Notes: generated by a model from the sequence alone, not told the origin. 64,000 nt of DNA from Candidatus Nanoarchaeia archaeon (GCA_028713895.1 JAQTNH010000001.1:758610-822609), one strand, 5' to 3'; numbered from the stretch's first letter, positions 11,754 through 52,158 are shown. Numbers and translations: made by a program.

Positions 11754-11779
11754 GGTGTTGTCCAGTATGTCCAGTAATC
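11754..11779. promoter_or_regulatory. conserved 26-nt element, copy 1 (GGTGTTGTCCAGTATGTCCAGTAATC; tandem TGTCCAGTA half-sites)
   Basis: Identical 26-mer at 52097..52122 and a 22/26 match at 28578..28603. Lies 37 nt upstream of the LAGLIDADG gene ATG, directly upstream of a TTAAATAAA TATA-like box (minus-strand sense). Confidence 0.5.
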
Positions 11780-28577: not shown

Positions 28578-28603
28578 GGTGCTGTCCAGTATGTCGACTA
28601 ATA
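28578..28603. promoter_or_regulatory. conserved 26-nt element, copy 3 (GGTGCTGTCCAGTATGTCGACTAATA)
   Basis: 22/26 match to copies 1 and 2; 37 nt upstream of the XPD ATG with a TTAAATA box between, and 42 nt upstream of the divergent + gene. Confidence 0.45.
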
Positions 28604-41372: not shown

Positions 41373-41523
41373 GCGCTGGCGGAAAGATGCTTCGCAATCA
41401 GCCCTTAAACCTTTCTTGCAAAGAAAGCCTTGGGAAAGAAGCGCTGGCGGAAAGATGCTTCGCAATCAGCCCTTAAGCCTTTCTTGCAAAGAAAGCCTTG
41501 GGAAAGAAGCGCTGGCGGAAAGA
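41373..41523 (+). repeat. 68-nt direct tandem repeat, 2.2 copies, upstream of tRNA-Pro
   Basis: Units 41373..41440 and 41441..41508 differ at 1 of 68 nt (GCGCTGGCGGAAAGATGCTTCGCAATCAGCCCTTAA[A/G]CCTTTCTTGCAAAGAAAGCCTTGGGAAAGAA); partial third unit to 41523; a degenerate relative continues to 41597. Confidence 0.85.
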
Positions 41524-49672: not shown

Positions 49673-49789
49673 TGTGGAGGAGGGGATTCGCACCCCCGAT
49701 CTCCGCGTTACCCAGTAATCTCATGAGCTTTGCCAGTTTGACATCTCTGTCAAAACTTGCGGCATTCTACTAGGCTAAACTACCTCCAC
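49673..49789 (-). tRNA. tRNA-Met(CAU) (or CAU-type tRNA-Ile2) with two BHB introns (30/31 and 37/38), unusual A18/G55
   Basis: Hand-folded. Exons 49789..49759, 49728..49722, 49708..49673 (74 nt); introns 49758..49729 (30 nt; central UGCC/GGCA, bulges GC|A and AA|G) and 49721..49709 (13 nt; central CUCA/UGGG, bulges UG|A and UA|A). Mature GTGGAGG-TA-GTTT-AGCCTAGTA-GAAT-G-CCGCG-CTCATGA-CGCGG-AGATC-GGGGG-TGCGAAT-CCCCT-CCTCCAC-A. 74+43=117 nt matches the span. Confidence 0.8.
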
Positions 49790-50026: not shown

Positions 50027-50485
<459 letters not shown>

Positions 50486-50489
50486 TTAT

Positions 50490-50523
50490 TGGACTAGGAG
50501 GGATTCGAACCCTCAGCCTCCCA
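50490..50523 (-). other. orphan tRNA 3'-half-like sequence (positions ~40-73 of a second Ala-type tRNA)
   Basis: TGGG-AGGCT-GAGGG-TTCGAAT-CCCTC-CTAGTCC-A, 9 nt downstream of tRNA-Ala. Shares GGGAGGCT with tRNA-Ala, but the T stem and acceptor strand differ by compensatory changes; retains U70; no matching 5' half (GG[G/A]CTAG) seen in this window. Confidence 0.5.
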
Positions 50524-50532
50524 ATATATAAA

Positions 50533-50654
50533 TGGACCCGCCGGGATTCGAACCCGGAGCCTCCCGCATTTTGGTATCTAACGCCCTCCGCAAAATTTTC
50601 TTTTTTGCAAAAGAAATGTTTTAAGCGGACGCGATGCCGTTTCGCCACGGGCCC
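50533..50654 (-). tRNA. tRNA-Ala(GGC) with two BHB introns (33/34 and 37/38) separated by a 4-nt micro-exon
   Basis: Hand-folded. Exons 50654..50623, 50585..50582 (GGCG), 50568..50533 (72 nt); introns 50622..50586 (37 nt; central CCGC/GCGG, bulges UU|A and AG|G) and 50581..50569 (13 nt; central UUGG/CCAA, bulges CG|U and AA|U). Mature GGGCCCG-TG-GCGA-AACGGCA-TCGC-G-TCCGC-TTGGCGT-GCGGG-AGGCT-CCGGG-TTCGAAT-CCCGG-CGGGTCC-A with the Ala identity pair G3.U70. 72+50=122 nt matches the span. Confidence 0.85.
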
Positions 50655-51967
50655 TCCTTGAATTCATCCAAACACCAATACATCTTGTCGACGTATCTAT
50701 TTGCAAGTTCTATATCTGTTTGGGTTGCGTGTTTGTCCTTTTCTAATAGGACACCAACTACTTTTAAATCTTTATTTATCATTTCTTTAACCATAAAACC
50801 ATATCCTATTAACTCCTTGAATCCCTTTTTTGAAAAAAAGTATACTGTATCCTCAGAACTTTCATCTGAAACAAAATAAGTCTCATATTTAGTTTTAAGT
50901 AATTTCTTTCCGAGTAATTTCACTTTTTCTTTCAAAATGTCTCTTATAATATTCTCGCTTTCAATGAAATCTTTATTTGATTCGCATTGAGCATTTGCTT
51001 TTGAACGGATACTATTCGACTTTAGTTCTGTGTTCAAACAATTATCAATTTGAATAAAATCTGTTTTATTGTTACAGATTAATTCATGTTTTATATCCAT
51101 AAACTTGGTATTATTCAAAATTATTGGCACGATTCCTGTATCAAGTAAATATTTTGCAATTTCAAGCTGCATTCTCTTTGGAGTTTTCCAATTTTGGTTT
51201 TGGATTTCAAAGCTTATCAAAAGAGGAACATTTAGCTTAATTCTGCTTAGTTTACGCTTTATCCTTGCGATGTCATAATACATTGCGCTCTTTTTCTTTT
51301 TTAGACCAACAACTTCTTCCAGTGCAACGATTTTATTATTTTTGTAATAAACAAAATCTATATTGCATCCATTAATTTGTTTATGAACCTCAAAAGTTAT
51401 GCCTTTTAACGTTTCATTTTGTTTTTTAACCTTTAATTCAAGGCGGTTTAGTTCTGCATGTTCTGCGCCTTTATTGCCTAACTTGCTATAATAATCTGCA
51501 CCATACCTTTTCAGTAAGGTTTGTTTTGATTTAGCATGTATTTCTTTGTTAGTTTTGAAGAATTTCAAGAGATTATACCATTTCTGTCTTTGTAATCTGC
51601 TATACTCTTTAGGACTTTTTGTTTTCATCTCATGATGCCATCTTTTAATTCCTGCAATCCTTTTTTGAAGCGCATCACTATTCCCTTCTTTAATCTTTTG
51701 ATTAGTAATCATGGCGCCTTTAGAAGCGCCCCAGTTATGGTTTAACAGAATTCCACTATTAATGTATAATTCTGCTTCATCTTTCGGGAAATTAGTTAAG
51801 AGATACTCTGGGAGTGTTTGTTCTCCTCTTGCCCATCCTTTAAGGGTATTGTAGTTAATATTCAACTTGACTGAAAGTTCTTTTAGTGATTTTGAATTAG
51901 TATACTGTTTTAAGTTGATAAAGAGTTTTTTGTTAATCTCTTTGTTAAGCATTAATCTTTTTTCCAT
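50621..51967 (-). CDS. HTH-containing hypothetical protein, possible endonuclease-like core
   Basis: 448-aa ORF; N-terminal HTH-like SLKELSVKLNINYNTLKGWARGE (similar in style to the LAGLIDADG protein N-terminus); mid-region NIDFVYYKNNKIVALEEVVGLKKK resembles a PD-(D/E)xK/Vsr-like core (weak). The last 11 codons (GPWRNGIASA*) are read from the 5' part of tRNA-Ala. Confidence 0.5.
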   Translation of the reverse strand: MEKRLMLNKEINKKLFINLKQYTNSKSLKELSVKLNINYNTLKGWARGEQTLPEYLLTNFPKDEAELYINSGILLNHNWGASKGAMITNQKIKEGNSDALQKRIAGIKRWHHEMKTKSPKEYSRLQRQKWYNLLKFFKTNKEIHAKSKQTLLKRYGADYYSKLGNKGAEHAELNRLELKVKKQNETLKGITFEVHKQINGCNIDFVYYKNNKIVALEEVVGLKKKKSAMYYDIARIKRKLSRIKLNVPLLISFEIQNQNWKTPKRMQLEIAKYLLDTGIVPIILNNTKFMDIKHELICNNKTDFIQIDNCLNTELKSNSIRSKANAQCESNKDFIESENIIRDILKEKVKLLGKKLLKTKYETYFVSDESSEDTVYFFSKKGFKELIGYGFMVKEMINKDLKVVGVLLEKDKHATQTDIELANRYVDKMYWCLDEFKEGPWRNGIASA

Positions 51968-52070
51968 TTTAAATCACCGAGCCGACTGGGGCGAAAGCGC
52001 TTTACGAAGTTTTCGGTTTCACCGAAAGCTCGATAAAGCAAGCTGAGCCAGGCTCACAGGTGATTTAAAA
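51967..52070 (+). other. long-stem structured element with canonical BHB geometry on the + strand (putative 73-nt excisable segment 51985..52057)
   Basis: 12-bp helix TTTTAAATCACC/GGTGATTTAAAA, 4-bp helix GAGC/GCTC, 3-nt bulges CG|A and AC|A on opposite strands, inner helix CTGG/CCAG, three internal hairpins. On the minus-strand mRNA the same helix pairs the GGTGAT SD and abuts the ATG of the 448-aa ORF. Confidence 0.45.
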
Positions 52071-52096
52071 GAAATAATACTATATGGGTTTGTCGG

Positions 52097-52122
52097 GGTG
52101 TTGTCCAGTATGTCCAGTAATC
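52097..52122. promoter_or_regulatory. conserved 26-nt element, copy 2 (GGTGTTGTCCAGTATGTCCAGTAATC)
   Basis: 26/26 identical to copy 1; 130 nt upstream of the 448-aa ORF ATG (minus), followed in minus sense by CATATAGTATTATTT; 37 nt upstream of the + gene ATG at 52159. Confidence 0.5.
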
Positions 52123-52158
52123 CTAATATTTTTATGCTTACGCTGCATGTATCTTAGC

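Follow-up and report, generated by a model that had tools for sequence, protein, structure and literature searches.

A tRNA-Ala 3' portion beside an ORF-tRNA-Ala(GGC) cassette in a DPANN-type archaeon is probably the remnant of a displaced resident gene

The stretch of DNA analyzed here, 64,000 nucleotides in length and referred to below as the window, corresponds to C1:758610-822609 of a 1.07-Mb assembly with 13 contigs, 89.5% completeness, and a GC content of 42.6%. The host is a DPANN-type archaeon whose relatives have genomes of 0.5-1.2 Mb and whose homologous proteins are labelled "Candidatus Woesearchaeota"; the NCBI assembly GCA_028713185.1 is 100% identical to it at the locus over 6.4 kb. 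Introns occur in most tRNA genes of this genome, several of which have multiple, non-canonical introns, and complete alanine tRNA genes are present for all three anticodons: GGC (window 50654..50533), TGC (C1:169105), and CGC (C1:539159). Immediately downstream of the GGC gene lies a free-standing tRNA 3' portion, which we call the orphan, surrounded by the following features.

50027..50434, minus strand: HIT-family gene (Pfam HIT, E = 1e-17), the downstream synteny anchor.
50452..50489, minus strand: copy of a genome-wide hairpin repeat, AATAAGCCTTTCTTCCAAAGAAAGCCTTAAGGGAAAGAA, 38 nt, abutting the 3' end of the orphan.
50490..50523, minus strand: orphan tRNA 3' portion, probably positions ~40-73 of a resident tRNA-Ala(GGC) formerly of the intronless type.
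50524..50532, minus strand: spacer TTTATATAT, 9 A/T bases, either the cassette end or a junction.
50533..50654, minus strand: tRNA-Ala(GGC) interrupted by two nested BHB introns (G3:U70; 49.6 bits against Rfam tRNA, 53-nt insert).
50654..50623, minus strand: exon 1 of this tRNA, ending in ...GTCCGC-TT.
50622..50586, minus strand: intron 1, 37 nt.
50585..50582, minus strand: micro-exon GGCG.
50581..50569, minus strand: intron 2, 13 nt.
50568..50533, minus strand: exon 3, starting with T-GCGGG-AGGCT...
50621..51967, minus strand: ORF448 (448 aa), with a predicted N-terminal HTH and two restriction-endonuclease-like (PD-(D/E)XK-like) domains.
52097..52122, minus strand: 26-nt operator-like box GATTACTGGACATACTGGACAACACC at the left cassette end, ~8 nt upstream of a TATA-like box.
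50524..52127, minus strand: whole inserted cassette, ~1.6 kb, AT-rich, missing from the syntenic site of the related contigs L038 and L071.

The orphan comprises 34 bases, 5'-TGGGAGGCTGAGGGTTCGAATCCCTCCTAGTCCA-3' (window 50523..50490), which divide by structural element into TGGG-AGGCT-GAGGG-TTCGAAT-CCCTC-CTAGTCC-A: the end of an anticodon stem, a variable loop, a T arm, an acceptor strand with U70, and A73. Its 3' terminus reads ...CCCTCCTAGTCCA, with no encoded CCA, and on its 5' side the spacer TTTATATAT joins it to A73 of the intron-bearing tRNA-Ala(GGC). A sequence-only reading of this DNA had described a tRNA half with U70 placed 9 nt after a tRNA-Ala, with a T stem of GAGGG/CCCTC versus CCGGG/CCCGG and an acceptor strand of CTAGTCC versus CGGGTCC, and every one of these details is present on the minus strand. 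Over positions 39-73 the orphan and the adjoining tRNA are identical at 27/35 positions, with the differences located in the T stem and acceptor strand. Two automated calls over this region are artefacts: the ARAGORN default "tRNA-Ser(cga) 50490..50584" stitches the orphan onto intron sequence, and the Phe-aaa call with an intron that is obtained under ARAGORN -i stems from the non-canonical introns.

Two comparisons bear on the identity of the orphan. The 3' end of tRNA-Ala(TGC) of the same genome is identical to it at 32 of 33 positions, the sole difference being A68 versus G68, and the 3' ends of tRNA-Ala(GGC) in two relatives match it at 31/31 positions (L038:5409-5439) and again at 31/31 (L071:1258-1288); likeness to tRNA of this order is far above chance. 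The idea that the orphan is a copy of tRNA-Ala(TGC) was dropped, as synteny identifies the resident gene as the GGC isoacceptor with a shared backbone; the resemblance to tRNA-Ala(TGC) exists because the alanine isoacceptors of this lineage have that backbone in common. The match to the relatives' complete gene bears out the earlier proposal that the fragment belongs to a different, once-functional tRNA and is not a decayed copy of its neighbor. Lacking positions 1 to ~39, the orphan can form no cloverleaf, and its complete orthologues are found at L038:5368-5439 and ~L071:1186-1288. When 301 genomes of the class were scanned with 3 mismatches allowed, the orphan sequence was present within 1 mismatch in 0 of the 300 other genomes, so its backbone belongs to this lineage. 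The exact pattern had no match in viral contigs; in the metagenome scans a first pattern returned no match and a second, shorter one led to L071. A T-arm scan of the whole assembly found no other tRNA fragments.

A matching 5' half, already reported as absent from the window, was sought across the whole assembly with the pattern GG[AG]CTAG and with GG[AG][CT]T[AG]G, which allows for G:U pairs with the acceptor strand CTAGTCC and was combined with U8 and a D arm. These patterns match only the intact, intronless tRNA-Ala(TGC) at C1:169105, 640 kb away, so the earlier observation extends to the assembly, with the reservation that at 89.5% completeness this absence is not absolute.

The tRNA upstream of the orphan is interrupted twice. 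By our reading of the sequence by hand, which is also the source of the G3:U70 assignment, intron 1 is bounded by a BHB motif with helix CCGC/GCGG and bulges TT|A and AG|G, and intron 2, at the canonical 37/38 position, by a BHB motif with helix TTGG/CCAA that can form only once intron 1 has been spliced. Intron 2 has a homologue in tRNA-Ala(CGC), whose intron is 14 nt long. It follows from this arrangement of exons and introns that the neighbor of the orphan is a tRNA-Ala(GGC). Its acceptor and T-stem backbone, GGGCCCG / CCGGG / CGGGTCC, is that of the tRNA-Ala(GGC) of G002, a genome of the same family, and the cassette tRNA could therefore be vertically inherited and not an import; judged from this backbone, it may be native to the family, reaching the locus either via a within-family donor or by vertical descent. 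Its 3' half had no exact-pattern match in the genome collection.

Two relatives of the organism, L038 (an ENA contig) and L071 (a JGI contig), have a complete tRNA-Ala(GGC) at the locus syntenic with the orphan, and neither has ORF448. The window and L038 are collinear in the order BacA, AlkD, an 80-aa ORF, X, and HIT, with 78-90% nucleotide identity. The place of X is taken in L038 by a complete tRNA-Ala(GGC) without introns (L038:5368-5439; GGGCTAGTGGCGCAACGGCAGCGCGCTCGGTTGGCAATCGAGAGGCTGAGGGTTCGAATCCCTCCTAGTCCA), the last 31 nt of which are those of the orphan, A68 included, followed by a CYTH gene. The left flank (BacA, AlkD, and the 80-aa ORF) is 78% identical to L038 up to window position ~52125; the right flank (HIT and the next ORF) is 90% identical from 50434 downward (L038:6001-6643), and the HIT proteins share 92% amino acid identity. 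L071 is ~80% identical to both the window and L038; it shares with L038 the tRNA backbone and the upstream sequence AAGCATAAAAATCTTTTCAA and has no ORF. Both flanks of the window are ~80% identical to the relatives and all pairs among the three stand at ~80%, a level at which their branching is unsettled. Around this site, the HIT neighborhoods of L002-L004, genomes of the same family, show no synteny with the window. As a separate observation, tRNA-Ala(GGC) has a 31-nt D-arm intron in L071:1186-1288 and no intron in L038:5368-5439, which, read from the two sequences, is an intron gain or loss at ~80% genome identity.

These comparisons define the boundaries of the inserted DNA. Homology to L038 runs to window position ~52125/52128 (L038 5353) and resumes at 50520, and L071 gives the same pattern. 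The left junction falls right after AAGCATAAAAAT, where the window continues with the 26-nt box and ORF448. Within the cassette, the operator-like box and TATA-like box come first, then a structured leader, and after it ORF448 with its two-intron tRNA-Ala(GGC). What is gone from the window relative to its relatives is ~17 nt of upstream DNA together with tRNA positions 1 to ~40. At the break point the orphan has TTGGG versus TCGAG in the relatives, with 2/5 positions different, so the exact junction is uncertain within positions ~38 to 44. The right side has also changed: the relatives have a CYTH gene between tRNA-Ala and HIT (L038:5445-5996), with HIT following after a 4-nt gap, no CYTH homologue was found in the assembly under study, and the hairpin repeat at 50452..50489 stands in its place. 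At the left end, the 26-nt box has an identical copy at 11754..11779, upstream of an HTH/LAGLIDADG-like gene, and a 22/26 copy at 28578..28603; the copies share only the box and the TATA spacing, and both of the others also precede nucleic-acid-enzyme-like genes.

ORF448 has a GC content of 30.5%, compared with 42.7% for the window, and a GC3 of 30%, compared with 39-51% for neighboring genes. Its last 34 nt overlap exon 1 of the tRNA, so that the last 11 codons and the stop are shared, with the stop codon straddling the border between exon 1 and intron 1. No Pfam or PHROG family matches it, a sequence-profile search of the PDB gave no match, and a word-based homologue search recovered only the protein itself; an exhaustive phmmer search returned 16 full-length homologues at 27-37% identity. 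In the family alignment D204 and E218 are invariant and H195, Y207, E217, E338, G353, K354, D368, and D427 are near-invariant; D204, E217, and E218 together with a lysine resemble a PD-(D/E)XK motif. With this alignment an AF2 model reaches a pLDDT of 86.6 and has two alpha/beta domains preceded by an N-terminal HTH and a helical region (the single-sequence model, at pLDDT 35, was of no use). High-probability Foldseek matches are throughout nucleases of the restriction-endonuclease fold: those in the PDB include VC1899/Card1, Can2, the two-domain type IIS enzyme BsmI, NucS, and SfsA, and those among viral structures include a "restriction endonuclease", an "endonuclease-like" protein, and a group-I-intron-associated Vsr homing endonuclease, with CI/XRE repressors matching the HTH; the E-values are weak, at best 7.6e-3 against the PDB and 1.2e-4 against viral structures. 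From the model we read ORF448 as a predicted HTH-guided PD-(D/E)XK-like nuclease. As a side observation, its N-terminal ~100-160 aa, the HTH module, occur in ~60 of 401 genomes of the class, alone or with other C-terminal parts, which gives it the look of a DNA-binding domain that has been shuffled among nuclease-like genes of DPANN archaea.

Full-length members are rare. ORF448 is absent from the other 6 genomes of its family or order (present in 1/7), and full-length members occur in only 2-3 of the 401 genomes of the class; the one clear full-length match in the class, in G165, lies ~12 nt upstream of a different multi-intron tRNA. At nine of nine distinct loci (the window and L048/L049, L050, L051, L052, L053, L054, L055, and L056) a family member abuts (0-30 nt) or overlaps the 5' end of a same-strand tRNA-Ala(GGC) with G3:U70. 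These linked tRNAs were read by eye from the sequence, with Rfam backing those at L052 and L053. Introns interrupt 8/9 of them (7/8 without the window), one or two each, in the D arm and/or the anticodon arm; the tRNA at L054 is intronless, which means that introns are not obligatory for "immunity" of the kind proposed below. An LSM / tRNA-Ala(GGC) neighborhood is kept at several ORF-bearing loci. A second trailing orphan, GCGGGTTCGATTCCCCCAAGTCCA, is found at L048/L049, 57 nt after the tRNA, where the ORF is only 33% identical; the layout matches that of the locus in the window. Relatives of L048 without the ORF, sought via the downstream gene, were not found in 401 genomes, which leaves this second orphan without an empty-site control. 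In the window and at the other ORF448-family loci, tRNA exons encode the C-terminal residues of the protein (for example ...GPWRNGIASA*, ...WAGGAKVAHSLG*, and ...WALSSAW*). RNase P processing of an ORF-tRNA co-transcript would remove the stop codon, and this suggests, at the level of gene layout, that expression of the ORF448 family is coupled to tRNA maturation.

We consider it probable that the orphan is the non-functional 3' remnant of a displaced resident tRNA-Ala(GGC), left behind when a cassette of ~1.6 kb replaced the first part of the gene. The 31/31 identity to complete genes in syntenic position indicates that the orphan is the tail of the gene formerly at this site, and the empty sites, the linkage, the rarity of the ORF, and the second scar together point to a relic scar of cassette invasion. 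The simplest history on these sequence comparisons would be a single insertion-replacement in this lineage, as argued by the two empty-site relatives, the foreign composition, a tail that starts in the anticodon stem, and the lack of substitutions: the orphan has 0/31 relative to the relatives, against ~20% divergence of the flanks, and by this measure the relic is recent. Two of the earlier suggestions survive in part here. A relic of tandem tRNA duplication was correct as to the relic, which would derive from the displaced resident gene and not from a tandem duplication; an att-site duplicate left by an integrase was correct as to a mobile-element scar, with a mechanism that does not hold (a 27/35 repeat, a 9-nt gap, and integrases more than 100 kb away).

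How such a cassette might enter can be outlined. On entry it would take the place of the first ~40 nt of the resident tRNA-Ala(GGC) along with ~17 nt of the DNA before it; the GGC isoacceptor would from then on come from the cassette tRNA, and the resident tail from about position 40 would stay 9 nt downstream. ORF448 would act as a free-standing homing-type endonuclease that cuts uninterrupted tRNA-Ala(GGC) in or near the anticodon arm, and break repair would copy the ORF-plus-tRNA unit on the left and proceed by end joining on the right, which would account for the survival of the recipient's 3' part from roughly the break point onward. Introns may protect the cassette's own tRNA from being cut. 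We infer this homing-endonuclease-like mechanism from the arrangement of the sequences and the predicted fold. Since clean homing would leave no duplicate, the model has to include an irregular repair step. Of the features of a homing cassette, a constant target with sporadic distribution and an empty-site allele in relatives are both present, and recurrence at the same target, rarity, a nuclease fold, and a second scar are properties of free-standing homing endonuclease genes. More broadly, and with more doubt than confidence, we propose that the ORF448 family may be an undescribed group of HTH-PD-(D/E)XK homing endonucleases of DPANN archaea, traveling as two-gene units with their own tRNA-Ala(GGC) or, in distant members like that of G165, with other tRNAs, which would cut and replace the host's uninterrupted tRNA gene and for which BHB introns would serve as immunity patches.

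A secondary use of the scar is compatible with its origin as a remnant of the resident gene. The archaeal TATA-box consensus is TTTAWATA, and the spacer TTTATATAT is a perfect instance of it, ~90 nt upstream of the HIT ATG. The relatives' HIT lies 4 nt after CYTH, which the window genome is without, so that HIT now stands without its former operon partner, and the spacer, fragment, and hairpin could together have been exapted as its promoter and 5' leader. Such a role would explain the lack of decay in the orphan (0/31 substitutions); a recent event accounts for the zero substitutions too, and the leader fold is not unusually stable (z = -1.25). We regard this exaptation, in which the spacer may serve as the HIT promoter, as unlikely.

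Reciprocal loss after an old tandem arrangement would do without a mobile cassette, and we consider it quite improbable. Under this history an ancestor carried a vertically inherited ORF448 with its tRNA-Ala(GGC) and a second tRNA-Ala(GGC) paralogue downstream; the 5' half of the second copy then disappeared from the window genome, and the ORF with the first copy from L038 and L071. In its favor, the backbone of the ORF-linked tRNA is that of the same-family G002 gene, the orphan has the backbone of the organism's own tRNA-Ala(TGC) and could thus be a paralogue-derived extra copy, and the LSM / tRNA-Ala(GGC) neighborhood persists at several ORF-bearing loci. However, two precise losses are needed (or the unsettled sister relation of L038 and L071), both restoring the same continuous upstream sequence, and the ORF is missing from 6/6 other genomes of the family and from ~99% of the class. 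The foreign composition of the ORF and the independent second orphan at a very distant family member also weigh against this history.

A classical att duplicate, in which a tyrosine-integrase element of the SSV or pNOB8 type entered the 3' end of tRNA-Ala and the orphan represents attR or attL, is very improbable. tRNA 3' halves of about the length of the orphan are typical archaeal att sites (Sugahara 2012, PMC3293823), and the tRNA-Ala(TGC) paralogue has a duplicated 13-nt 3' end. Against this, the orphan and the adjacent tRNA are identical at only 27/35 positions with only 9 nt between them, the fold of ORF448 is nuclease-like and not that of an integrase, and the orphan sequence occurs in no viral contig. 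The sequence-only reading had suggested looking for integrase genes; the assembly has three tyrosine-recombinase genes (PF00589, at C1:191640, 916419, and 933258), none at the border and all more than 100 kb away. The first of these lies 22 kb from tRNA-Ala(TGC), and no matching repeat was found to bound that interval.

That the orphan is a functional split-tRNA 3' half joined in trans to a separate 5' half, as had also been suggested, is scarcely credible: the fragment is intact and undecayed, with a TATA-like box upstream, in an organism with versatile BHB splicing and many multi-intron tRNAs, but no free 5' half was found in the assembly, where the lone matching acceptor belongs to an intact tRNA-Ala(TGC), all three alanine anticodons are covered by complete genes, relatives have the same sequence here within an ordinary, contiguous tRNA gene, the TATA box abuts the fragment so that transcription starting ~25 nt downstream would begin inside the T arm, and there is no leader for a BHB junction, the upstream sequence being 9 A/T bases and then the 3' end of another tRNA.

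The closest published parallel is tRNA-Thr(GGU) of Caldiarchaeum subterraneum (Sugahara et al. 2012, PMC3293823), where a 1.8-kb insertion places a DNA-enzyme gene just upstream of a same-strand two-intron tRNA, an orphan of the older allele remains at the border, and close relatives have a simpler allele. In that case the fragment is a 5' one upstream of the insertion, whereas here it is a 3' one downstream, and the gene is a predicted recombinase for which pNOB8-type att recombination was modelled (PMC3293823), in contrast to a PD-(D/E)XK-nuclease-like gene fused to the tRNA. The window cassette, unlike that of Caldiarchaeum, carries a complete replacement tRNA, and the pairing of ORF and tRNA recurs in many lineages. 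Phage free-standing homing endonucleases and "collaborative homing" (T4 mobE, PMC2790892; cyanophage F-CphI, PMC6083498; reviewed in PMC2988022) are alike, as these accounts present them, in having a nuclease gene beside an essential gene, a carried allele interrupted by an intron, sporadic distribution, a constant insertion site, and empty sites in relatives. The systems covered there involve self-splicing group I introns and demonstrated cleavage, whereas the introns here are protein-spliced BHB introns and the nuclease is a prediction; in the window a duplicated target remnant stays in place, which clean homing would not produce. In the att duplications of the SSV1/pNOB8 type a 30-45-nt copy of a tRNA 3' end similarly marks the border of foreign DNA, but the window has no integrase, no identity with the neighboring tRNA, and no element between tRNA and repeat. 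Split and permuted tRNA genes (Nanoarchaeum, Caldivirga, Thermofilum; PMC3218864) likewise have a free-standing half whose T arm and acceptor strand are intact; unlike them, the window has no partner half and no complementary leader, and its isoacceptor is already encoded by a complete gene.

The main published model of how archaeal tRNA genes gain BHB introns and fragment into split genes rests on the single Caldiarchaeum locus. The present locus offers one filled and two empty sites in close relatives with defined boundaries, and ties them to a nuclease-like ORF that recurs beside tRNA-Ala(GGC). The value of the orphan lies in its being the footprint of an ORF-tRNA cassette that is previously undescribed and always on this tRNA in the loci examined. 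If the proposed mechanism is true, intron gain, tRNA gene replacement, and orphan halves would be tied to one selfish element; if the family as a whole consists of homing endonucleases, protein-spliced introns of archaeal tRNAs would spread, and multi-intron tRNAs build up, by a route at the DNA level, with orphan halves as possible raw material for split tRNAs. If the mechanism is false, what remains is simply a well-dated pseudogene fragment, and the split-tRNA reading may be abandoned.

Several further observations concern other tRNA genes of this genome. The gene called tRNA-Ala(CGC), at C1:539159-539245 on the minus strand (GGATTGG.../CCAGTCCA), has A3:U70 in place of the alanine-identity G3:U70. 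Its Rfam score is only 23.4 bits, and the gene may be aberrant or wrongly assigned. Within C1:169105-169300, tRNA-Ala(TGC) is followed by a 101-nt insert between 13-nt direct repeats of its own 3' end, TCCTGGTCCACTA, and the module downstream of this gene recurs behind tRNA-Phe at C1:241869, there interrupted by 41 inserted nt. In the window, a two-intron tRNA(CAU) at 49675-49789 on the minus strand was missed by ARAGORN; it scores 19.4 bits with Rfam and has the T loop UGCGAAU. The hairpin repeat that abuts the orphan belongs to a family of the form AAGCCTTTCTT(NN)AAAGAAAGCCTT(A/G)GGGAAAGAAG, with copies at window 50452-50489 and ~41410-41500 and at C1:151057, 56484, 588965, 742434-742472, and 703188-703223. 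They are found in tRNA introns (Asn, Asp), upstream of tRNA-Pro (in tandem) and tRNA-Val, beside the orphan, and inside apparent ORFs, and the repeat could be either a mobile module resembling an intron or a hairpin bound by protein.
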